Notes: generated by a model not told the origin, from the letters alone. A stretch of DNA of 33,916 nucleotides from an uncultured virus (IMG/VR IMGVR_UViG_3300043464_001377) (IMGVR_UViG_3300043464_001377), one strand, 5' to 3'. Numbered from the stretch's first letter, positions 7,264 to 33,916 are shown. Made by a program: numbers and translations.

Positions 7264-9792
7264 ATGGCGACGGTAGAGCGAGCAATCGGCGGGGCTGGCA
7301 CTGGGAAGACGAGGCTGATCCTCGATCGGCTCTCCCAGGCCAAGCGGGAACTGGGCCTGGGCGTCCACGAGATCGGCTTCTGCACCTTCACGAGGGCAGG
7401 CAGGGCCGAGATCGCTGGGCGGGCTGCCGCTGAGTGGAACGTCGACGTGGACGCCCTTACGAGCCACGGCTGGTTCCGGACGGCCCACGCGATCGCCTAC
7501 CGTCAGGTCAGCGTGGCCGACGGGCAACTCATCCAGGGCCGCGACGGCGACCAGTTCGTCTCGGACTCCGTCGGGGGCGTGATCAGCACGAGGATCGACG
7601 GTCGCGGCGAGCGGCAGTACATCTCAGGCGAGGGCGACGACAAGTCGATCCCGCTCTCGCTGAAGGCCTGGGAACTGGCTCGCAGCAAGATGACCAGCGT
7701 CCAGTCGATCCTGGCACGGTGGGACTTGTGCGGCGAGGAAACGCCGACACTCGCCGACGCCCGTCGCACGATCGAGAAGTACGAGAACGCCAAGAAGGCC
7801 CACGACCGTCTCGATTTCACGGACGTGATTTCCAGGTTCGCGGGCGTCCGCTACACGGTGGACGGGCCGTACCGGGTCGAGCCCGAGGGCGACGTGCCCG
7901 AGGGGCTTCGTGTCCTGGCGATCGACGAGGCCCAGGACTCGTCGACCCTCGTCGATCTCGTCTGCAAGCGGCTCGCCGCGAGTCCGACGATCGAGCGAAT
8001 CTGGCTGTGTGGCGACCCGTACCAATGCCAGCCAGCCGGAACGCCTGTCCTGACGTTGTCTGGATACAAGAATATCGAAGACCTCGACCCGTCGACGGAC
8101 AAACTCGTCTCGTTCAGCCGCAGGGAAGGCAGGTTCTACGGTGCGAATGGCTTCGAGATCGCAAACCGCGAAGTTGACTCTTCTAGTCTGATCGAAATCA
8201 CGCTCGCCGACGGTACGAAGCACGTCTCCACGGACAGCCACAAATGGGTCGTCAGGACTCGCGGAAAGAAAAATGCGTTCGCAACGTACCTCATGTCTCG
8301 CGACGGCCGCTGGAGAGTCGGGACCGTCCAGATGTTTGCCGGAAAGACTTCCGACAGGAACGGATCGTTCAGGCTCAAGATGCGTATGAATCAAGAGGAC
8401 GCTAAACGCGCGTGGATTCTTGGCGTCTTCGAGACAGACCGCGAGGCCAGATGCTACGAGCAGATCGTCTCGTGTAAGTACGGCATACCGCAGGTCACGT
8501 TTCGTCCAGTCTCAGGAGGCAGGAGCAATCTCGACAAGGGATACATAGAGGCAGTGTTCGAGTCGCTTGGAGACTTGACTGCCAGCGGCTGTAGGTGTCT
8601 GAGAGACCACGGCCTCGACGCTGAATCTCCTCTTTGCGAGAAGGCCGACCGTTGCAAGAACGGGCATCATGCGAGCAGGCTCGTTCACGCATCGAACTTG
8701 CTGCCTGGAATCCACTACGTTCCGAAGATGACCGACCCCGGCCGGGGAATCACAGCAAGGCGGTGCGAGTGGGTTGAGGTCGTGGCGTGCAGGAGGCTTC
8801 CCGCTGGCGAGAAAGTCCGAGTCTGGAGCATGAATGTTCACAAGCATCACACGTACGTGACAACAAGCGGTGTTGTCACAGGCAACTCGATCCACAGTTT
8901 TGCCGGGGGCGACTACACGCACTTCATGTCCTGGGAGGCGACCGAGTCGACCATGCAACGGTCCTACCGCTGCCCACGGCAAGTCCTGGCCCTGGGCGAG
9001 GCCTGCCTGCGGCAGATGACGAAGGGATACCGGGACCGTCAAATCCAGCACGCCGGGCACGACGGCTCCGTGAGCCGCGTCGGCAGTGCCGAGGAGGCCC
9101 TGTCTCGCCTGTCGGCCAACACGTCGGCCCTCATCCTGGGACGCTGTGCCTACTCGCTCGAAGAGTACGAGGCGATCCTCCAGGCCAAAGGCATGCCGTA
9201 CCTGTGGATCGACAAGACCTCCGGCTCTTCTACGTTGTCTGGATACGCGGCCCTGTGGGGACTCCAGCACGGACAAACGATCTCGGGCGACGACTGGGCG
9301 AACGCCGTCCAGGCGATCGCTGTGAAGAGCGGCGAGCATGGCGAACTGCTCACTCGCGGCACCAAGACGGCATGGAAGAGCGGCAAGATGTCGCACGTCG
9401 ATCTGATTCGTCCAACGACAGACGACTACGAACTGATCGGCGTCACGCCGTCGCTGGCAACGCTGATCTCGCAGGGCCGCTGGCATCTGGCGATCGAGCC
9501 CAAGTCAGCCGATCGGGCGAGGATTTGGCTGGACACGGCAACTCGCTACGGCGAGGAGGTCGCTACGAACCCGCCTATCCGGCTGTCGACGATTCACGGC
9601 GCCAAAGGCCTGGAGGCCGACACGGTGATCCTGTCGTCGATCACGAGCCCGAGCGTCGAGCGGTCTCGCAACGCCCTGGCTGACTTGCACGACGAGGAGT
9701 GCCGCGTGGCCTACGTGGCGGTCACGAGGGCCAAGAAGGATTTCATGTTCGTCGACGACGGATACCGCTACCGCATGGATTTGCCGCTATGA
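7264..9792 (+). CDS. UvrD/Rep-like superfamily 1 helicase, intein-containing
   Basis: GGAGTGKT, CTFTRA, FRTAHA, IDEAQD, GDPYQ/SIHSF, SYRCP, LSTIHGAKGLE, YVAVTRAK. Confidence 0.93.
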   Translation: MATVERAIGGAGTGKTRLILDRLSQAKRELGLGVHEIGFCTFTRAGRAEIAGRAAAEWNVDVDALTSHGWFRTAHAIAYRQVSVADGQLIQGRDGDQFVSDSVGGVISTRIDGRGERQYISGEGDDKSIPLSLKAWELARSKMTSVQSILARWDLCGEETPTLADARRTIEKYENAKKAHDRLDFTDVISRFAGVRYTVDGPYRVEPEGDVPEGLRVLAIDEAQDSSTLVDLVCKRLAASPTIERIWLCGDPYQCQPAGTPVLTLSGYKNIEDLDPSTDKLVSFSRREGRFYGANGFEIANREVDSSSLIEITLADGTKHVSTDSHKWVVRTRGKKNAFATYLMSRDGRWRVGTVQMFAGKTSDRNGSFRLKMRMNQEDAKRAWILGVFETDREARCYEQIVSCKYGIPQVTFRPVSGGRSNLDKGYIEAVFESLGDLTASGCRCLRDHGLDAESPLCEKADRCKNGHHASRLVHASNLLPGIHYVPKMTDPGRGITARRCEWVEVVACRRLPAGEKVRVWSMNVHKHHTYVTTSGVVTGNSIHSFAGGDYTHFMSWEATESTMQRSYRCPRQVLALGEACLRQMTKGYRDRQIQHAGHDGSVSRVGSAEEALSRLSANTSALILGRCAYSLEEYEAILQAKGMPYLWIDKTSGSSTLSGYAALWGLQHGQTISGDDWANAVQAIAVKSGEHGELLTRGTKTAWKSGKMSHVDLIRPTTDDYELIGVTPSLATLISQGRWHLAIEPKSADRARIWLDTATRYGEEVATNPPIRLSTIHGAKGLEADTVILSSITSPSVERSRNALADLHDEECRVAYVAVTRAKKDFMFVDDGYRYRMDLPL
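8026..8886 (+). mobile_element. Intein (287 aa) in helicase motif III
   Basis: Splits GDPYQ|SIHSF; starts CQPAGTPVLT; block B TDSHKW; ends HTYVTTSGVVTGN followed by Ser. Confidence 0.92.
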
Positions 9793-10538
9793 AACTCAAA
9801 TTGATCGCCATCCCGCTACTCGCCGTCGCGATCGTCGCGATCGCTGGCACGATCGACCCACGCAAGGACGATGAACGGCACCGTGAGTACGGCGACAAGT
9901 TCAAGTGCGTCGCAAAACTCGTGTGCCGAAACATCAAGACCGACTGCGAGCAGACCGCCAGTTGCGTGATCATCTCGCCGAGGTTTGTGATCACAGCCGC
10001 GCATGTCGTCGCTGACTGCGACGGCTGGTTCGTGCTGTGCGACGACGGATCGAAGCGCGAGATCGCCGAGATCGTCTCGCATCCTGACTTCAAGCAGAAG
10101 AAACTCAGTGAAGGAGACTTGGCGATCGGGAGAGTCTCGGAGCCGTTCACGCTGGACTTCTACCCTGCCTTGCACGGGCTCAAGGACGAGCCTGGACGGG
10201 TCGCCGCCATCGCTGGCTACGGGCTGACGGGCACGTTCAAAACAGGCGCCGTGGTCTGCGACGGCAAAAAACGGGCAGGCTCCAACGTGGTCGACCGTGC
10301 CGACCGAGACCTACTGATCTGCTCCGTGGACTCGAACCGCAGGACAGAACTGGAGTTCCTGATCTCCCCGGGCGACTCAGGCGGCGGCCTGTTTCTCGGC
10401 AACGATCTCGCTGGCATCAACTCGTTTCTGATGGTCGCGGGACGGACGGCAACGGCAAAGATGGGCGAGGAGTCGGCCCACACGCGAATCAGTGCCCACA
10501 AAGAGTGGATCGAGGAGGTTCTCAATGCCCGCGAATGA
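9789..10538 (+). CDS. Secreted trypsin-like (S1) serine protease
   Basis: Signal peptide MKLKLIAIPLLAVAIVA; ITAAHV, GDLAIG, GDSGGG catalytic motifs. Confidence 0.88.
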   Translation: MKLKLIAIPLLAVAIVAIAGTIDPRKDDERHREYGDKFKCVAKLVCRNIKTDCEQTASCVIISPRFVITAAHVVADCDGWFVLCDDGSKREIAEIVSHPDFKQKKLSEGDLAIGRVSEPFTLDFYPALHGLKDEPGRVAAIAGYGLTGTFKTGAVVCDGKKRAGSNVVDRADRDLLICSVDSNRRTELEFLISPGDSGGGLFLGNDLAGINSFLMVAGRTATAKMGEESAHTRISAHKEWIEEVLNARE

Positions 10539-12739: not shown

Positions 12740-13684
12740 ATGATGCACGACATCATTCACGGCGACGCAACGGACGTCCTCTGCGGCATGGATGCCCAGA
12801 GCGTCCATTGCGTTGTCACGAGCCCGCCGTACTACGCCCAGCGGTCGTACCTGGGCGAGACGGACCCGCTCAAGCCGCAGGAGATCGGCCTCAAAGGCGG
12901 CGAGTACATCGCGGACCTCGTGGCCGTGTTCCACGAGGTCAAGCGGGTGCTTCGCGACGACGGCACGCTGTGGCTGAATCTCGGCGACGTCTACGAGAAC
13001 GGCGAACTGCTCGGCCTGCCGTGGATGGTCGCCCGTTTGCTCCAGTCGGACGGCTGGATGCTTCGCCAGGACATCGTGTGGGCCAAGCCGAGCCCGATGC
13101 CCGAGAGCGTCTCTGACCGCTGCACACGGGCCCACGAGTACGTGTTCATGTTCACCAAGTCTCGCGACTACTTCTACGACGCCGAGGCGATCAAAGAAGA
13201 GTCTGGCTCGTCGCCGACGGGCAAGAACCGCCGCAGCGTCTGGCGGATCGCGTCGACGCCGTACGCCGGGGCCCACTTCGCCACGATGCCGACGACCCTG
13301 GCGGAACTGTGCATCCAGGCTGGCACGAGCGAGTACGGTGCCTGCTCGTCCTGCGGGACTCCGTACGAGCGGCAGATCGAGAAGCGGAAGATCACTCGCA
13401 AGCGGCCAAACCAGTACGTGAAGCGAACGGGCTCGAAGGGCACGGGCAACTCGTGCGCCAACACGGTGGCTGGCGTCGAGACCAAGACCATCGGCTGGAG
13501 CCCTGACTGCTCGTGCGTGGCGTGGGTCCAGCCGTGCGTCGTGCTTGATCCGTTCGCCGGAAGCGGCACGACGCTGGCCGTGGCTAAGGAACTTGGCCGC
13601 AGCGGTGTGGGCATCGAACTCAACGCTGAGTACGTGGAGTTGGCGAGGAAGAGGGTAGCCCAGACTTCCGAGAGGATGCCATGA
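12740..13684 (+). CDS. Second DNA methyltransferase, N4-C/N6-A, beta class
   Basis: TSPPYY, LRQDIVWAKP.PMPESV.DRCT, DPFAGSGTT; paralog of 11063. Confidence 0.93.
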   Translation: MMHDIIHGDATDVLCGMDAQSVHCVVTSPPYYAQRSYLGETDPLKPQEIGLKGGEYIADLVAVFHEVKRVLRDDGTLWLNLGDVYENGELLGLPWMVARLLQSDGWMLRQDIVWAKPSPMPESVSDRCTRAHEYVFMFTKSRDYFYDAEAIKEESGSSPTGKNRRSVWRIASTPYAGAHFATMPTTLAELCIQAGTSEYGACSSCGTPYERQIEKRKITRKRPNQYVKRTGSKGTGNSCANTVAGVETKTIGWSPDCSCVAWVQPCVVLDPFAGSGTTLAVAKELGRSGVGIELNAEYVELARKRVAQTSERMP

Positions 13685-14493: not shown

Positions 14494-14747
14494 CCAGCGA
14501 CGACATCATCGAGACCCTGTCGGACCTGAATCCCGAGGCCCTACTCGCCGACGGATTCGAGCAGGCCCTGGTCGGCTACACGGCCAACTACCACCACCCA
14601 CACGTCGCCGTGTACAGCGCGAAGAAGTGCATCGCGATCCTCGTCAAGCGTGACGGCATGACCGAGGACGAGGCCGAGGAGTTCTTCTCCCTCAACACGC
14701 TCGGCGCCTATGTCGGCGAGAGCGGCCCGCTGTTCGCTTGGATGTGA
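14490..14747 (+). CDS. Conserved small phage protein (ADGFE.ALVG family)
   Basis: LADGFEQALVG, VAVYS..KC, EAEEFF..NTLGAYVG. Confidence 0.7.
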   Translation: MTSDDIIETLSDLNPEALLADGFEQALVGYTANYHHPHVAVYSAKKCIAILVKRDGMTEDEAEEFFSLNTLGAYVGESGPLFAWM

Positions 14748-14784
14748 GTCATTCGCGGAGGGGAAACCCGCGAGAGACTGTTTC

Positions 14785-15303
14785 GTGCCTTGGATCGTGT
14801 ACGAGACCCGCTGCTTGGTCAGCGGAAAAATCTACATCGGCGTCCACAAGCAGGACGGCGACGAGTTCGACGGATACCTCGGCAGCGGAACGCTGATCAC
14901 AGCCGCTGTCGAGAAGCACGGACGGGATAACTTCCGTAGACAGACTCTCTTCGCGTTTGAGTCTGAACGAGATGCCTACGCCAAAGAGGCAGAACTCGTG
15001 GGCCGGGAGTGGGTCGATTCGACGTGGACATACAACATCAAAGAGGGCGGCATAGGGGGCGTCGGCTTCTCGATGCCAGAGGAGGCTCGCGAGAAAATCC
15101 GAGAGTACAGAACGGGAAGGCCGCACAGCGAAGAGACGAAGGAGAAGATTCGCCAGCATCGGGCCAAGATCGCGTTTCGCCACACTTCGGAGTCTCGGGC
15201 AAAGATGTCGGCCTCCAGAAAGGGCATTCCCCATTCAGAAGAGCGAAAGCAGAGGATCAGCGATGGCATGAAGCGGTCTTGGCAACTGCGGAGGGCTCCG
15301 TAG
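14785..15303 (+). CDS. GIY-YIG homing endonuclease with NUMOD3 repeats
   Basis: IVY...GKIYIG, YLGSG, YNI..GG; three H(S/T)xEx(K/R)xx(I/M) NUMOD3-like repeats. Confidence 0.88.
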   Translation: MPWIVYETRCLVSGKIYIGVHKQDGDEFDGYLGSGTLITAAVEKHGRDNFRRQTLFAFESERDAYAKEAELVGREWVDSTWTYNIKEGGIGGVGFSMPEEAREKIREYRTGRPHSEETKEKIRQHRAKIAFRHTSESRAKMSASRKGIPHSEERKQRISDGMKRSWQLRRAP

Positions 15304-29355: not shown

Positions 29356-29543
29356 GCGACGACACCTCGTGGATGGACGGGCCTGTGCTGGTCGATCCTC
29401 CGAGCGGCTGGAGGTGGGGATTCCCAAAACTCTGGGATCGCAAGACGCCGTGCCGGGAGTGGCTGGTCGCCAATGGGTATCCAGAGCATCTGGCGAATCA
29501 AGACTTGCCGTGCCGGTTCATTCAGCCGGAGCGAGAGGATTGA
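29352..29543 (+). CDS. Small phage protein
   Basis: VDPPSGWRWGFPK...WLVANGYP; ATGA coupling. Confidence 0.65.
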   Translation: MSDDTSWMDGPVLVDPPSGWRWGFPKLWDRKTPCREWLVANGYPEHLANQDLPCRFIQPERED

Positions 29544-29837
29544 ATGCACGTCATCGACAAAGCAGCCTATGAAGGCGACATCGTCTCTCGGCTCAGGAAC
29601 TGGCGAGGGCTGCACCTCGCTCACAGCGGGGAGTTGTTCGAGGAGGCGGCCGACGAAATTGAAAAGATTCGCGCCTACAGAGACGAAGCCGAGGATGCGG
29701 CGTCGATAGCGAACCTGGCGGCACTCAGCCTGCGGCTGACCGACGATGAGTGGGGGGCGATTGCATACTATGTCGGCACTGGCGGGCCTCGTGGTGTAGA
29801 CGCCACGCTCCGCTCACTGCTGGAGCGAACGAAATGA
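29544..29837 (+). CDS. Small phage protein (DIV.RLR/EAADEIE motif) with LTxxE...LLERT tail
   Basis: GDIVSRLR, EAADEIE, RLTDDEW...TLRSLLERTK. Confidence 0.65.
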   Translation: MHVIDKAAYEGDIVSRLRNWRGLHLAHSGELFEEAADEIEKIRAYRDEAEDAASIANLAALSLRLTDDEWGAIAYYVGTGGPRGVDATLRSLLERTK

Positions 29838-30013
29838 GCCTGGACAAGGCTATCGAACACGGCAAGGAGAAACGGAAGGGCTATCACAAATCCGCCGCCG
29901 TTGACCGCACATGCCGACCCGGAGGCACATGCCCGTATTGCTCTAGGGGCAGGCGGCACAAGAACAAAAAGCGAGCGGCAGCGGCGAAGGACAAGGAGAG
30001 TGACTGTGGCTGA
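29834..30013 (+). CDS. Small basic Cys-containing phage protein
   Basis: MSLDKAIEHGKEKRK..DRTCRPGGTCPYC. Confidence 0.6.
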   Translation: MSLDKAIEHGKEKRKGYHKSAAVDRTCRPGGTCPYCSRGRRHKNKKRAAAAKDKESDCG

Positions 30014-30236
30014 AGAACAGAATCCGGTGGCGTGGGCGGCGGTCGCCAAGAATGACGCCGCCGACTGGCTGCGGCACGCGATCGCCGCCGACCGCATCAG
30101 GATCGCGCAACTGGAGTCAGAGATCGAGCGCCTGCGGCTCACCTTCGAGGAGCGGCAGGCGATGATGCGCGCGATGTATCGGGTTGTTGGCGCCGACTCC
30201 GAAATACTCTGGTCGCTGCTGGAGCGGACGAGGTGA
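30006..30236 (+). CDS. Small phage protein (PVAW motif, LTxEER tail)
   Basis: AAGGAG SD before GTG; stop codon lies in the attC core TGAGAAC. Confidence 0.65.
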   Translation: MAEEQNPVAWAAVAKNDAADWLRHAIAADRIRIAQLESEIERLRLTFEERQAMMRAMYRVVGADSEILWSLLERTR

Positions 30237-30323
30237 GAACGACAAGGATCAGGAGCGGCGAGACATGAACACTGACAACACGCAGGACGGTGCCGAGCCG
30301 TCTCCTGCATCCGCTGGTTCTGC
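30234..30323 (-). other. attC site A (type 1, 90 bp)
   Basis: Minus strand: AGAAC-CAGCG-GATGCAGG...CCTGATC-CTTGTC-GTTCTCA. Confidence 0.85.
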
Positions 30324-30552
30324 CACGCTCACTGTGGACGACGTTGCGTTGCTCTACGACGAATGGAAGCGGCGATACTGCGGCCCGCGAGACATGGTGA
30401 TTCTGGTGCGGAGGCCAATGTGGAAACGAGTGCTTTCCGTCCCGTGGATGTGGTGGTCGCACTTCGGACTGGCTTGCCAATACACGGGCATTTTTCAATC
30501 CGCAAGGCTGGCAACGCTCTTCGTCTGGGCGTTCCTTACGGCTCGCAAGTAG
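30265..30552 (+). CDS. Cassette protein starting inside attC A
   Basis: AGGAG-9 nt-ATG within the attC; N-terminus MNTDNTQDGAEPSPASAGS; hydrophobic C-terminus. Confidence 0.6.
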   Translation: MNTDNTQDGAEPSPASAGSATLTVDDVALLYDEWKRRYCGPRDMVILVRRPMWKRVLSVPWMWWSHFGLACQYTGIFQSARLATLFVWAFLTARK

Positions 30553-30554
30553 TG

Positions 30555-30644
30555 GTAGAACGCCAGCGATCAGCGGCCCGCGACCTATGACCATGAACAA
30601 ACCAACCGACGATCTCGCGGGTCCGCTGCATCGCGTGGTTCTCA
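30555..30644 (-). other. attC site B (type 2, 90 bp)
   Basis: + strand AAC-GCCAG-CGATCAGCGGCCCGCGA...TCGCGGG(T)CCGCTG(C)ATCG-CGTG-GTT. Confidence 0.85.
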
Positions 30645-30805
30645 CTGGTCGGCAGCGAGAGGCAATCATGTATTGCATCGCGTGTGCGCAGGACTTCCGA
30701 GACACTATTGATTCGTTTGAACCTGACGGCGATTTGGCGCGACAAAAGGCCACTGAGAACATTGACATTGCCATAAGGCTCGTTTGGCCGCTCGTTGGCC
30801 CTTAG
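30587..30805 (+). CDS. Cassette protein starting inside attC B
   Basis: ATG in the attC loop; LTGRQREAI motif. Confidence 0.55.
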   Translation: MTMNKPTDDLAGPLHRVVLTGRQREAIMYCIACAQDFRDTIDSFEPDGDLARQKATENIDIAIRLVWPLVGP

Positions 30806-30821
30806 CAGACGAAGGACGAAA

Positions 30822-30974
30822 ATGAACAGAGAACCGATGTGGCTGTCAGTTCTGGTGTTTCCCATGAGAGCGGCCTTCGTAGTTATGGGGCTGTCGATGG
30901 TGGCGGCATTTTTAGTCGCGCCTTGGGTCTTGATTGCTTGGGCCGCAGGCTGTTGGTGCGGATGGTGTAAGTGA
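30822..30974 (+). CDS. 50-aa hydrophobic membrane peptide
   Basis: AAGGA SD; MNREPMWLSVLVF...WCGWCK; stop in the TGAGAAC core. Confidence 0.55.
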   Translation: MNREPMWLSVLVFPMRAAFVVMGLSMVAAFLVAPWVLIAWAAGCWCGWCK

Positions 30975-31006
30975 GAACCAGTGTTTCTCAACGTAAAGGA
31001 GTTTGC

Positions 31007-31588
31007 ATGACGACTTTTGGGTTTTTCCTGTCTGCGGCCACGCTGGCTCTTGGGCTGCTTCTTGGCTACATCGTTTTTGGGATGAGACCGAAGCCTGCGC
31101 AAGATGACTACGCTGATTGTTTGATTCACCCCGAGACAACGCCGCAGGTCAAGTGGGTGAAAATGACGCGGCCTACGAGGGACGCGATCATCGACATCTA
31201 CGCGGCCAACATGGACGAGTGCAAGAAGTTCATGGAGGCAAACGACCGCGTTACGACTGGCGAGGCGGCGATACTGTGGCTCATGGAAAAGGCGAAGCGA
31301 CAACACCGGCGATCAGCGGCCCGCGACCGCTGCATCGCGTGGTTCTCAAAAGCAAAGGAGACAGGCATGAGTGATCTTGTGCCGCCGATGATGCCTGACG
31401 ATCTGGATGCGCTCATCCAGGCGATGGAGCGAGTGCAGCAGTTAGAGGCGGAGGTGGAAAAGTTGCGGCTCACCGGCGAGGAGCGGGAGGCGATTGCGTG
31501 GTTTTCGGTCTACTCCGACACGCCAGGAGAGGAGCGGCACGCGGCCGTGCTGGAGACACTGATTGCACGGTTGGATTGTGACCGATGA
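31007..31588 (+). CDS. Fused ORF reading through attC C; second start at 31367
   Basis: AAAGGAG SD before both ATG 31007 and in-frame ATG 31367. Confidence 0.55.
   Translation: MTTFGFFLSAATLALGLLLGYIVFGMRPKPAQDDYADCLIHPETTPQVKWVKMTRPTRDAIIDIYAANMDECKKFMEANDRVTTGEAAILWLMEKAKRQHRRSAARDRCIAWFSKAKETGMSDLVPPMMPDDLDALIQAMERVQQLEAEVEKLRLTGEEREAIAWFSVYSDTPGEERHAAVLETLIARLDCDR
31298..31348 (-). other. attC site C (short type 2, 51 bp)
   Basis: AAC-ACCGG-CGATCAGCGG-CCCGCGA-CCGCTG(C)ATCG-CGTG-GTTCTCA. Confidence 0.75.
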
Positions 31589-31659
31589 TCAGCGATAACC
31601 GCGAAAATAGGCGGCGATCATCACTGACCACAGAGAGCAGCCCGAGAAAGGACGTTGAT

Positions 31660-31896
31660 ATGACACAGAACGAACTGGCCGAACGGCTGCGAGACATGAG
31701 CGACGCGCTCAACATTTGCGGTGCCGATTACAGTGACGTTTTGCTGGACGCGGCGAGAGAACTGGACCGCAGGAGTTGGATTCCGCAGCCCACGCTCACC
31801 GACGAGGAGCGGGAGGCGTTGCGCGGGATGCTTCCGACGATCATGTACGAACCGCACAGGAAGGCGATTGAGTCGATACTGGCACGGCTTGGTTGA
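31660..31896 (+). CDS. Cassette protein with PTLTDEERE tail
   Basis: AAAGGA SD; LAERLR..DAAREL; stop in the attC D core. Confidence 0.65.
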   Translation: MTQNELAERLRDMSDALNICGADYSDVLLDAARELDRRSWIPQPTLTDEEREALRGMLPTIMYEPHRKAIESILARLG

Positions 31897-31983
31897 GAAC
31901 ACGCAGGATCAGGAGCGGCGAACAATGAGCGATGACAACACGCAGGACGGTGCCGAGCCGTCTCCTGCATCGGCTGGTTCTCA
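31894..31983 (-). other. attC site D (type 1, 90 bp)
   Basis: Near-identical to A and H; encodes 20-aa peptide MSDDNTQDGAEPSPASAGSH (31925-31987). Confidence 0.85.
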
Positions 31984-32005
31984 CTGACAGAAACAAGGAG
32001 TTGAA

Positions 32006-32221
32006 ATGCCGAAGTGCATCATCGGTCCCAATGGAGTGGCTCACGGCCCAATGTGCAAGGACGGTCGCTTGTGCGGTTTTCGCGGAAACCAACTAGAGAG
32101 CGACCGCAAGTCGCAGCCCACGCTCACCGACGAGGAGCGGCAGGTGATATTTCGCGCGATGTATCGGGCTGCCGGCGCCGACTCCGCAATACTCTGGTCG
32201 CTGCTGGAGCGGACGAGGTGA
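32006..32221 (+). CDS. Cassette protein with PTLTDEER tail
   Basis: AAGGAG SD; stop in the attC E core. Confidence 0.65.
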   Translation: MPKCIIGPNGVAHGPMCKDGRLCGFRGNQLESDRKSQPTLTDEERQVIFRAMYRAAGADSAILWSLLERTR

Positions 32222-32308
32222 GAACGACAAGGATCAGGAGCGGCGAACAATGAACACTGACAACACGCGGGGCGCGGCCGAGCCGTCTCTTGCATCCGCT
32301 GGTTATGC
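32219..32308 (-). other. attC site E (type 1, 90 bp)
   Basis: AAC-GACAA-GGATCAGGAG-CGGC...GCCG(T)CTCTTG(C)ATCC-GCTG-GTTATGC. Confidence 0.85.
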
Positions 32309-32609
32309 GGTTGGCGATGTGATGGCGTTTCAGTGCGGGTTGCGTGGCGAATCATGGGAACTGCACAAAATCACCCGCATTACCGAGAAGGGGCTGATGA
32401 CTTGTGGCCCGTACCAGATAGACGCGCACCTGCGAGTCAGGGGGCGAACGGGCTATTCCGGGCCGATTTGCAGAGGCAGGCCGACGCCTAAAATCATGGC
32501 AGAAGTTCAGCGGCAAAGGGCTATTGCCATTATCAAGGCGACGAACTGGAGCAGCGTGCCGCTGGACAACCTTTTGGGTGTGATAGCGGTGCTGGAACAA
32601 GACGCATAA
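32250..32609 (+). CDS. Cassette protein starting inside attC E
   Basis: N-terminus MNTDNTRGAAEPSLASAG; stop TAA in the attC F core. Confidence 0.65.
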   Translation: MNTDNTRGAAEPSLASAGYAVGDVMAFQCGLRGESWELHKITRITEKGLMTCGPYQIDAHLRVRGRTGYSGPICRGRPTPKIMAEVQRQRAIAIIKATNWSSVPLDNLLGVIAVLEQDA

Positions 32610-32692
32610 CGCCAGCGATCAGCGGCATCGAACACAGGAGCAACCATGACAAACGATGTAGATGAGATGTCTGCTGCATCGCGTGGTTCTCG
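32604..32692 (-). other. attC site F (type 2, 89 bp)
   Basis: AAC-GCCAG-CGATCAGCGGCATC...GATG(T)CTGCTG(C)ATCG-CGTG-GTT; AGGAG and ATG in the loop. Confidence 0.85.
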
Positions 32693-32894
32693 CATGGTCG
32701 GCTCCGCTCCCGTCGAACGCCTTGGTGCCACCAAGGTCACTGACGTAGGCGAGTCGGGGCTGGCTTTGGCGAGCGAGGAAAGGAATGCCATCGTCGAAGT
32801 GCTTGAATGTTGGCGGCGATCTTCCGCGATACAGCAGCAACTGCCAGAGTGGAGCGTTGTTTCGCTTTGCTCACTGCTGTGGAGGACGAGGTGA
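32646..32894 (+). CDS. Cassette protein starting inside attC F
   Basis: CAGGAG SD; LASEERNAI...SLLWRTR tail. Confidence 0.6.
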   Translation: MTNDVDEMSAASRGSRMVGSAPVERLGATKVTDVGESGLALASEERNAIVEVLECWRRSSAIQQQLPEWSVVSLCSLLWRTR

Positions 32895-32904
32895 CCGAGG
32901 GGAG

Positions 32905-32953
32905 CGAGAACGCCAGCGATCAGCGGCTCGTCCGCTGCATCGCGTGGTTATGG
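32905..32953 (-). other. attC site G (minimal type 2, 49 bp)
   Basis: AAC-GCCAG-CGATCAGCGG-CTCGT-CCGCTG(C)ATCG-CGTG-GTT. Confidence 0.8.
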
Positions 32954-32981
32954 CCGGGCGAGGACAACATGAGGACGCGAG

Positions 32982-33185
32982 ATGCGATGGAAGATGATCG
33001 ACAGGCCAGCCGACGGGAACGAGGTGAGCCAGTGGTTCGCGTTCTGGCCCGTCACTGTCAAAGGCGAAACCCGGTGGCTGGAATGGGTGGCTGTGGAGTA
33101 TCGAATCGTCATCGCGGGTTACTCCGACGCTCTGAAAGTGAGGCCCGGCAAGATTCACAAGCACGCGGTGCGGTTCATTTCATAG
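32982..33185 (+). CDS. Cassette protein (WFAFWPV...RWLEWV)
   Basis: Fills cassette G; aromatic motif seen in small phage proteins. Confidence 0.6.
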   Translation: MRWKMIDRPADGNEVSQWFAFWPVTVKGETRWLEWVAVEYRIVIAGYSDALKVRPGKIHKHAVRFIS

Positions 33186-33275
33186 CCATAACACGCAGGA
33201 TCAGGAGCGGCGAACAATGAGCGATGACAACACGCAGGACGGTGCCGAGCCGTCTCCTGCATCCGCTGGTTCTCG
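33186..33275 (-). other. attC site H (type 1, 90 bp)
   Basis: Body near-identical to D. Confidence 0.85.
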
Positions 33276-33549
33276 CGGGGAGCCAGTCGCGTGGGGCGTC
33301 TTCTACGGTGATGGGAAACTTCACTCATCATGGGACTCGCACGCAAAGGCCGAATGCACGGCGGTGACGATGCGACGGTTCGACCATCTCGGCGTCTATG
33401 TTTCGCCGCTCTACCGCTCGCCCACGCTCACCGACGAGGAGCGGGCGGCCATTGCCGAAGCGGCCGGAGCCTACAACGACAACGATGACGATGAGGAGTG
33501 TGCGAAGATCGCGGCCACGCTTCACAGCCTACTGAAGCGGCTAGGTTGA
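33217..33549 (+). CDS. Cassette protein starting inside attC H (EPVAW...PLY, PTLTDEER tail)
   Basis: MSDDNTQDGAEPSPASAGS N-terminus; stop in the attC I core. Confidence 0.7.
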   Translation: MSDDNTQDGAEPSPASAGSRGEPVAWGVFYGDGKLHSSWDSHAKAECTAVTMRRFDHLGVYVSPLYRSPTLTDEERAAIAEAAGAYNDNDDDEECAKIAATLHSLLKRLG

Positions 33550-33595
33550 GAACGTCAGCGATCAGCGGCTCGTCCGCTGCATCGCGTGGTTCTGT
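33547..33595 (-). other. attC site I (minimal type 2, 49 bp)
   Basis: Body differs from G by one base. Confidence 0.8.
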
Positions 33596-33627
33596 GGTTT
33601 GTTGGATGACACAACAGGAGGATTGAA

Positions 33628-33903
33628 ATGCTCTACAACGCAATCAAGCGGCGAGACAACCTTATCTCAGGTCTGCGCGACTCGCAGGAGTTTTTTTGCA
33701 ATGCCATGAACAGGCAGCATGGCAGCCTCATCGACTGGATGCGGTGGCAGATTGAGAAGCGCGAGACGCGGCTAGACACTATCGGCCTGATCGCAAAGGC
33801 AGGCGGCGAGCCGTTGACCGCAGACGCCGCTAGGACGGCTGGCGAGGTGGCGGCATTCCACGCCGTGCTGGCGTACATCAACAACGGTTGGAAGGCAGAG
33901 TAG
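33628..33903 (+). CDS. Cassette protein, hypothetical
   Basis: AGGAGG SD; fills cassette I. Confidence 0.65.
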   Translation: MLYNAIKRRDNLISGLRDSQEFFCNAMNRQHGSLIDWMRWQIEKRETRLDTIGLIAKAGGEPLTADAARTAGEVAAFHAVLAYINNGWKAE

Positions 33904-33905
33904 TC

Positions 33906-33916
33906 ACAGAACACGC
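33906..33916 (-). other. attC site J, truncated by window end
   Basis: ACAGAAC-ACGC matches the start of D and H; core complements GTTCTGTG at 33589. Confidence 0.65.

Follow-up and report, generated by a model that had tools for sequence, protein, structure and literature searches.

In the passages of PMC8876359 that deal with cassette structure, an integron cassette is a gene followed by a non-coding recombination site, attC, and about one fifth of cassettes have no translation start region. For such start-less cassettes the attI1 site of class 1 integrons is described there as carrying a start signal within the recombination site, in the form of the open reading frames (ORFs) ORF-11, ORF-18 and ORF-17; ORF-11 lies in a single attI site, spans the crossover and serves the first cassette only. 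Clusters of attC sites without an integrase (CALINs) are described from phages, and the phage-related part of Qi et al. (2023; PMC9892861) counts 17 of them in deposited phage genomes, each with at least two predicted attC sites, and reports that attC sites from virulent phages were recombined by IntI1. Here we describe the 3′ end of a DNA stretch of 33,916 nucleotides (nt) from an uncultured virus (IMG/VR IMGVR_UViG_3300043464_001377), the whole of which is called the window, where an array of hairpin repeats spans 30233-33916 on the + strand. This end of the window is probably an integron-type cassette array, a CALIN in a phage, in which each attC lies 5′ of its gene and the tops of the long sites are start regions for translation.

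In sedentary chromosomal integrons, that of Vibrio cholerae for example, unrelated genes are accompanied by attC repeats that are nearly identical within an array or lineage; there the repeats follow the genes on the 3′ side and are not translated, whereas those of our array lie 5′ and, in the long start-bearing sites, in the coding frame. T4-type phages have repeats of another kind, in which an early promoter joined to a stem-loop flanks small variable accessory genes that are shuffled by homologous recombination. Jacquier and colleagues reportedly found in 2009 that attC hairpins and upstream translation affect the expression of the next cassette. The sections on expression in Carvalho et al. 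(2024; PMC11511950) describe how attC mRNA structure and translation of the upstream cassette shape that expression, with little effect of attC deletion in most of the 10 cassettes tested; in those arrays attC follows its gene and does not include the start region of the next one, and no start codon within attC is described in these sections. Our search of open-access papers and bioRxiv found no description of a start codon within attC.

The array resembles the phage CALINs of PMC9892861 in having attC-type sites and cassettes in a phage genome without an adjoining integrase. It differs from them, as far as the phage-related part of that paper goes, in that a start codon and ribosome binding site lie within attC, which is not mentioned there, in that the genes are on the bottom-strand side, and in scale, since arrays of at least 10 sites, and up to at least 12 (locus L037), belong to a site family present in more than 100 uncultured viral contigs. 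As with ORF-11 in the cited passages of PMC8876359, a Shine-Dalgarno motif and an ATG lie within the recombination site and in-frame N-terminal fusions sometimes result; unlike ORF-11, the signal is in the variable top of many attC sites, is mostly inherited with its gene and is read through the right arm. Phage CALINs and a start signal in attI1 (ORF-11 and its kin) are thus already known, whereas the inverted layout, the attC top as a start and coding region and the scale of the arrays in uncultured lake phages appear to be undescribed and set them apart from the CALINs in that part of PMC9892861. Demonstrated in this reading are the site family with its cassette signature, the strand, where the junction falls, and that motif, ATG and frame are conserved.

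Hairpin repeats and their cassette signature

The right-arm pattern CTGCATCSSSTGGTT matches the window 11 times at no more than two mismatches, against 0.59 matches expected from shuffles, and nine of these matches are hairpin sites (A to I) forming a one-strand series on + at 30233-33597; a tenth site begins at 33905 and is broken by the window end. Sites A, D, E and H are of type 1 (93 nt), B and F are of long type 2 (92-93 nt), and C, G and I are short (52-54 nt). In all nine the outer boxes end in AAC on the left and begin with GTT on the right, and they enclose an inner stem, GATCAG(C/G)(G/A)G...C(C/T)(G/C)CTG-C-ATC, below a variable top of about 24 or about 64 nt. DNA folds of the well-folded sites B, C, D, G and I place a single bulged C and G on the 3′ arm of the + strand, and the structural passages of Nivina et al. 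(PMC5027507) describe the attC bottom strand with the same extrahelical-base geometry.

Related sites were collected by scanning viral contigs with the right-arm 15-mer, whose matches belong for the most part to the same family. Because two exact right-arm 15-mers served as seeds, the site set is biased towards them, and all counts derived from the scans are counts among the matches listed. Of 183 distinct sites, 163 have AAC at the expected place; 62 have an interior of 24-26 nt and 115 one of 62-66 nt. The related-site set numbers 264 (196 long and 64 short sites in the tallies below), and the junction test drew on 256 distinct sites, which came from a metagenome scan and two viral scans and whose interiors fall into 44 clusters. 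Metagenome loci L408, L421 and L439, which have many closely spaced matches, were excluded from the site set. Taken as a site array, L408 proved to be a tandem 58-nt satellite that is unrelated and contains the 15-mer by chance; the spacing of matches in L421 and L439 is as close as in L408.

The outer boxes link each site to the one before it. In the window, the left box of a site is the reverse complement of the right box of the previous site, with 8/8 positions at six of the nine junctions and 7/8, 6/8 and 6/8 at the remaining three, compared with only 4-7/8 for the site's own right box. The same holds in related contigs, where, for 81 informative consecutive pairs, the outer 5 nt are perfectly complementary to the previous site in 43 and to the own site in 2, and the previous site matches better in 67 pairs and the own site in 6. 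Even the beginning of the tenth site (33905..33916, +; CACAGAAC ACGC) has a left box that is 8/8 complementary to the right box of site I, and the array continues past it in the near-identical contig L071. A collapsed site at 30971..30991 (+), which consists only of the two outer boxes around 4 nt (GTGAGAAC-CAGT-GTTTCTCAA), is 8/8 complementary in its left box to the right box of site B.

Two Verrucomicrobiota genomes (G007 and G008) contain arrays whose sites share the inner stem and the right arm, GATCAGCGAC ... GCTGCATCGC(C/A/G)TGGTTAG, and each encodes two integron integrases above the TIGR02249 cut-off (457-485 bits). A covariance model built solely from 25 attC sites of these two integrase-bearing genomes retrieves nine out of nine window sites on the + strand, eight of them at E values from 2e-6 to 0.039 and site H at 0.11, while the best match on the − strand of the window has an E value of 1.2. 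The original prediction had taken the repeats for attC sites, and both the complementarity of the boxes to the previous site and the retrieval by the bacterial model bear this out; judged by sequence, the nine window repeats are attC-type sites with the cassette signature of integrons. A further match of the model, at 13476-13549 (E 0.02), lies within a methylase gene without any of the motifs and was rejected as a false positive. In G007 and G008 (loci L272-L277) the cassette arrays are large and attC measures about 122 nt, and the inner stem shows a compensatory change, GATCAG with CTGCATC in some sites and GATGAG with CTCCATC in others.

Start signals in the long sites

An ATG in the frame in which the right box is read through as GGT TCT is present in 139 of the 196 long sites, and 129 of these combine it, as ORF-11 does, with a Shine-Dalgarno motif within the site, 5-16 nt upstream and scored as a loose 4-mer match; the same combination occurs in the other two frames in 5 and 0 sites. 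This frame, which we call the tag frame after the N-terminal peptide, or tag, that it encodes, is stop-free across the interior in 171 of the 196 sites (46 and 48 for the other frames), and none of the 64 short sites has an ATG. Beyond GTT, 96 of 104 testable sites keep the tag frame open over 30 codons or more, compared with 48 and 50 for the other two frames, so that the start frame of long sites runs into the next gene beyond chance, as the original prediction required. Where there is no loop start, the tag frame is open past GTT in only 23 of 49 and 14 of 47 sites. B- and K-type long sites carry no start signal, and the frames of their downstream genes vary.

The genes behind the sites complement this pattern. 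In a smaller first site set, 61 of 66 loop ORFs continue for at least 45 codons, and of these 61 read-through genes 44 have no other motif-plus-start within 110 nt and 17 have one. Five loop ORFs stop early, four of them followed by a gene with its own start, as happens at site D, and at 37 of 41 short sites the next gene has its own start as well. Independent public gene calls contain the same tagged proteins. The variable top of the long sites would thus have become a translation start region made up of a Shine-Dalgarno motif, an ATG and 14-19 codons in the frame of the gene, and genes behind long start-bearing sites would mostly be without a start of their own, while those behind short sites would have one. 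We infer that ribosomes start at the loop ATG.

A contrary view, to which we give very little credence, is that the loop ATGs are unused or give rise only to short leader peptides, the true starts being downstream and the frames being open owing to high G+C. The 48 and 50 sites of 104 in which the other frames are also open would fit this, as would the 17 read-through cases with another candidate start, the burial of the type-1 motif in the stem and the variation of the tags by codon position, which gives no clear sign of selection at the protein level (0.39/0.67/0.58 for the three positions in type 1 and 0.25/0.46/0.48 in type 3, and so not concentrated at third positions). It does not account for motif and ATG sharing one frame at 129 of the 196 long sites against 5 and 0, nor for the difference in openness past GTT between sites with and without a loop start. 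The distribution of independent starts, absent in 44 of the 61 read-through genes and present in 37 of the 41 genes behind short sites and after four of the five early-stopping loop ORFs, speaks against it as well.

In the window, all four type-1 sites have AGGAG followed by ATG 9 nt later, as originally predicted. In site A (30233..30325, +; left box GTGAGAAC, right box GTTCTGCC; covariance model E 5.8e-5) these are at 30251-30255 and 30265, both within the site; in site D (31893..31985, +; E 3.7e-3) at 31911-31915 and 31925; in site E (32218..32310, +; right box GTTATGCG; E 0.017) at 32236-32240 and 32250; and in site H (33185..33277, +; a partial covariance match, E 0.11) at 33203-33207 and 33217. 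The predicted in-frame fusion to unrelated bodies is likewise present: ORF A (30265..30552, +; 95 amino acids, aa) runs through the right arm of its site into the body, as part of the same pattern as ORF E (32250..32609, +; 119 aa) and ORF H (33217..33549, +; 110 aa, of which the first 19 are site-encoded), while ORF D (31925-31987, +) ends at 20 aa and is followed by a 71-aa cassette ORF (32006..32221, +) with its own AAGGAG and ATG. Both type-2 sites have the ATG expected of them. Site F (32603..32694, +; F type; E 3.1e-3) carries AGGAG at 32636-32640 in the apical loop and an ATG at 32646, which opens ORF F (32646..32894, +; 82 aa). Site B (30554..30646, +; B type; E 2.1e-6) has an ATG at 30587 without a Shine-Dalgarno motif and in a frame different from that of type 1; ORF B (30587..30805, +; 72 aa) begins there and has an alternative in-frame ATG at 30668 after GAGAGG. 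The short sites G (32904..32955, +; E 5.2e-4) and I (33546..33597, +; E 2.4e-5) are without an ATG, and the cassette ORFs 3′ of them, of 67 aa (32982..33185, +) and 91 aa (33628..33903, +), start with their own GAGGA plus ATG and AGGAGG plus ATG, respectively.

Near-identical N-termini had been predicted for the type-1 ORFs. This describes A (MNTDNTQDGAEPSPASAGS) and D and H (MSDDNTQDGAEPSPASAGS) well and does not extend to E (MNTDNTRGAAEPSLASAGY), which is more diverged. Over all 129 start-bearing sites there are 103 distinct tags, with a common end, S-x-A-S-x-G-S/Y, because the conserved right arm is translated in that frame. In an AlphaFold model of ORF H, the predicted local distance difference test score is below 50 only at residues 1-19, and residues 20-110 form a confident fold, for which Foldseek returned no match in PDB at E ≤0.001. 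No credible PHROG or Pfam family was found for the cassette proteins, that of ORF A included. We infer that the tags are by-products of the site, without a function of their own as tags.

The stop codon of the upstream gene falls close to the start signal of the next. It is within the left box at A, D, E and I (TGAGAAC) and at F (CATAAC), and before the left box at H (6 nt; TAG at 33183), B (4 nt) and G (10 nt), in agreement with the original prediction of stops in or near the core. The same arrangement recurs in 225 of 248 sites, where an ORF of at least 40 codons ends between −40 and +12 of AAC, the stop being inside the left box in 118. It had further been proposed that the ribosome binding site is occluded in the mRNA hairpin until a ribosome finishing the upstream gene opens it. 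The pairing itself holds for type 1, in which AGGAG is paired with CTCCT in RNA folds with a probability of 0.87-1.0 in the window and a mean of 0.95 over 16 sites, and for type-3 loops (0.99, n=5); in F-type loops and other families the motif is mostly unpaired, that is, exposed (0.22, n=28, and 0.33-0.49, respectively). In the window the motif lies 17-29 nt from the stop. When 12-15 nt after the stop are held open in the fold model, the type-1 motif remains paired (0.73-1.0), and with 18 nt held open it is freed in A, D and E and not in H. Given that the pairing is limited to types 1 and 3, and given the held-open folds, coupling by unfolding is possible at sites of these two types, according to the fold model, and is not general.

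Strand, junction and the weighing of the cassette reading

All three bacterial sites that adjoin an integrase gene have the motif on their bottom strand; the genes of these bacteria lie opposite the motif, and their start codons are visible as CAT just before CTAAC. The phage coding strand is, from the motif it carries, the predicted bottom strand of attC, which puts attC 5′ of every gene and the canonical cut, AA|C, at the site's left end. A canonical cassette has its gene on the top strand and attC at the 3′ end, which is not what we find here, and since the genes are on the bottom-strand side we file the sites as attC-type in an inverted layout and not as canonical cassettes.

The position of the junction was read from flanks of 90 nt up- and downstream, compared between pairs of sites with at least one long interior (a comparison of whole bodies had given 3 pairs only). 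Pairs that agree solely in the upstream 90 nt have the same interior in 2 cases and different interiors in 24; for pairs that agree solely in the downstream 90 nt the corresponding numbers are 21 and 10 (Fisher p 3e-6, for pairs that are not independent). The 21 pairs that share interior and downstream gene and differ upstream have identical outer-left 5 nt in 1 case and identical 6 nt after AAC in 18, and the 24 pairs with the same upstream gene and different interiors have them in 17 and 3 cases, respectively. The junction is at the left AAC in 45 of the 57 informative pairs, so that interior and start usually travel together with the gene downstream of them. At the level of gene clusters, one interior type is kept by 13 of 26 downstream genes and by 2 of 24 upstream genes. 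A frame that spans the crossover, as in ORF-11, is not found in these 45 pairs, in which the junction is upstream of the start, and the other 12 leave room for one. The cassette unit would accordingly consist of C, the site interior, GTT plus 5 nt, the gene, its stop, the complement of those 5 nt, and AA.

The original prediction of a portable start module that is donated to different bodies thus fails for most pairs and describes a minority. Its strongest form, in which the start module belongs to the upstream cassette and is given to a start-less body, with translation crossing the recombination point as in ORF-11 of attI1, is in our judgement unlikely. The motif strand at the three integrase-adjacent sites puts the cut at the left AAC, and the junction is there in 45 of the 57 pairs; a conserved upstream gene goes with a different interior in 24 of 26 cases, a conserved downstream gene with the same interior in 21 of 31, and only 2 of 24 upstream clusters have one interior type.

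A number of observations nevertheless weigh against our reading of the array as integron-type cassettes with built-in starts, and several of them favour that alternative. Twelve of the 57 pairs point to exchange on the right side of the site, 10 with the same downstream gene and different interiors (the right 5 nt being identical in only 5 of these 10) and 2 of the opposite kind; only 13 of the 26 downstream clusters hold to one interior type, the other 13 having more than one. Window sites A and E are alike together with their upstream genes (30137-30323 and 32122-32308, 90%). The tagged proteins that were expected in public data do exist there, with mosaic bodies, and one body among these matches occurs with at least six tag types and also untagged. 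The linkage between interior and downstream gene is strong and not strict, and exchanges that part a start module from its body form a sizeable minority. The non-independence of the pair counts, the looseness of the Shine-Dalgarno match and the bias of the seeded site set, given above with the numbers they limit, count on the same side. On the side of expression, there is no RNA run among the 24 runs that contain the stretch.

Still on the adverse side, a tblastn search found no tyrosine recombinase in the window, which has no integron integrase, and in each of the five related contigs tested the only such enzyme is a distant Xer-like one, encoded well away from the array; none of the five matches TIGR02249. 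A search of 401 Verrucomicrobiota genomes found the phage-type short site in none of them. A complete integron, with intI and attI adjoining the array, is therefore not what the window contains, and with no integrase in it the array is classed as a CALIN. The Xer-like recombinases of L139-L143 measure 284-337 aa and share 24-47% identity.

The lack of an integron integrase in the window and in the five related contigs also bears on a third explanation, that the repeats are hot spots of homologous recombination of the phage, like the T4-type promoter-stem-loops, and no integrase substrates, with a likeness to attC due to ancestry or convergence. We hold this to be improbable, although more than the missing integrase is in its favour: the bodies are mosaic and joined at a repeated TLTDEERE, exchanges on the right side occur too, and three of the four mismatches between contig L071 and the window (99.7% identity over 32605-33912) are in the left half of the F loop, which suggests exchange within a site. 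Homologous exchange within the conserved arms, however, would not yield complementary outer 5 nt flanking the bodies, perfect with the previous site in 43 of 81 pairs and with the own site in 2, and homologous exchange would not concentrate the junctions on AAC. A model made from bacterial attC alone also finds all nine window sites in one orientation. Unlike T4-type repeats, the sites have outer boxes with the integron cassette signature and no promoter-like signal; neither promoter- nor terminator-like signals were found at them, and an early promoter joined to the stem-loop was not seen in a scan for sigma-70-type promoters only, which over 29500-33916 gave one match, off-site, against 1.0 expected. 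The reading as an integron-type cassette array is thus the one we retain as probable.

Phage context and biological meaning

The window is phage-like, with its long genes all on the + strand. It encodes an SNF2 helicase, a PDDEXK nuclease, a primase-polymerase, a UvrD-type helicase and two N6/N4 DNA methylases, and further a GIY-YIG endonuclease, a LamG-domain protein and a DUF551 protein; a trypsin-like serine protease gene and a GIY-YIG/NUMOD3 homing-endonuclease-like gene are in the phage replication region (9699-10538 and 14710-15303). Its relatives are uncultured viral contigs, one of five tested having an HK97-type capsid gene. The stretch has no match among 50,697 deposited phage records, and the primase-polymerase has only three weak matches in deposited phages. 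The record nearest to the window, G001, spans site A only. The runs that contain the stretch are lake and freshwater DNA runs. Contigs derived from the reads of four such runs end at sites, and some of their junctions join sites in other orders; no clean excision product was readable in them.

Several features of the array lie outside the regular pattern. The short site C (31297..31350, +; covariance model E 0.039) has a degenerate left box, GCGACAAC, with no stop, and an ORF at 31007-31588 (+) passes through it stop-free and in frame into the next gene (ATG at 31367); site and ORF may represent a fused cassette pair or a decaying site. The string GATCAGCGATAAC at 31589-31601, between two genes that have no full site between them, may be the relic of a site. 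Many cassette genes (29731-33455) share a stretch coding for (P)TLTDEERE(A)I, as at 30127-30159, 31458-31490, 31784-31816, 32112-32144 and 33416-33448, and an ending LLERT(R/K) or LLKRLG. Their public homologues are mosaics, whose N- and C-terminal halves meet at PLYRSPTLTDEERE in many combinations, and this stretch looks like a second, putative exchange point within the genes. In L071, one gene end (VRFIS, stop, GCCATAAC) recurs at positions 1-212 and 577-795, with an F-type interior behind one copy and a type-1 interior behind the other, and the gene at 33628-33903 of the window is present twice (93% identity), which indicates that a neighbouring phage has extra cassettes relative to the window.

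As to what moves the cassettes, a host integron integrase would be the agent, perhaps one of Verrucomicrobiota. The scan of bacterial contigs gave at least 120 matches, those listed being nearly all due to chance, with only L165 and L251 site-like among them, and the phage-type short site is in none of the 401 Verrucomicrobiota genomes searched; the site type that the phages have in common with Verrucomicrobiota integrons is nonetheless a concrete lead to a putative host. A broader proposition, about which we are of divided mind and lean slightly to doubt, is that widespread freshwater phages use the attC top as a ribosome entry site, while a host integrase acting on Verrucomicrobiota-type attC shuffles their inverted cassettes.

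Should this be true, integron recombination would be a regular engine of accessory-gene turnover in phages, and attC could be coding and translated. To the few deposited genomes in which phage attC clusters were known, our data add long arrays from many uncultured phages of lakes. In place of the usual non-coding attC behind the gene, the recombination site itself would supply the start region and be translated, and the sites would offer a natural test case of a DNA hairpin that is under structural selection and at the same time codes for protein.

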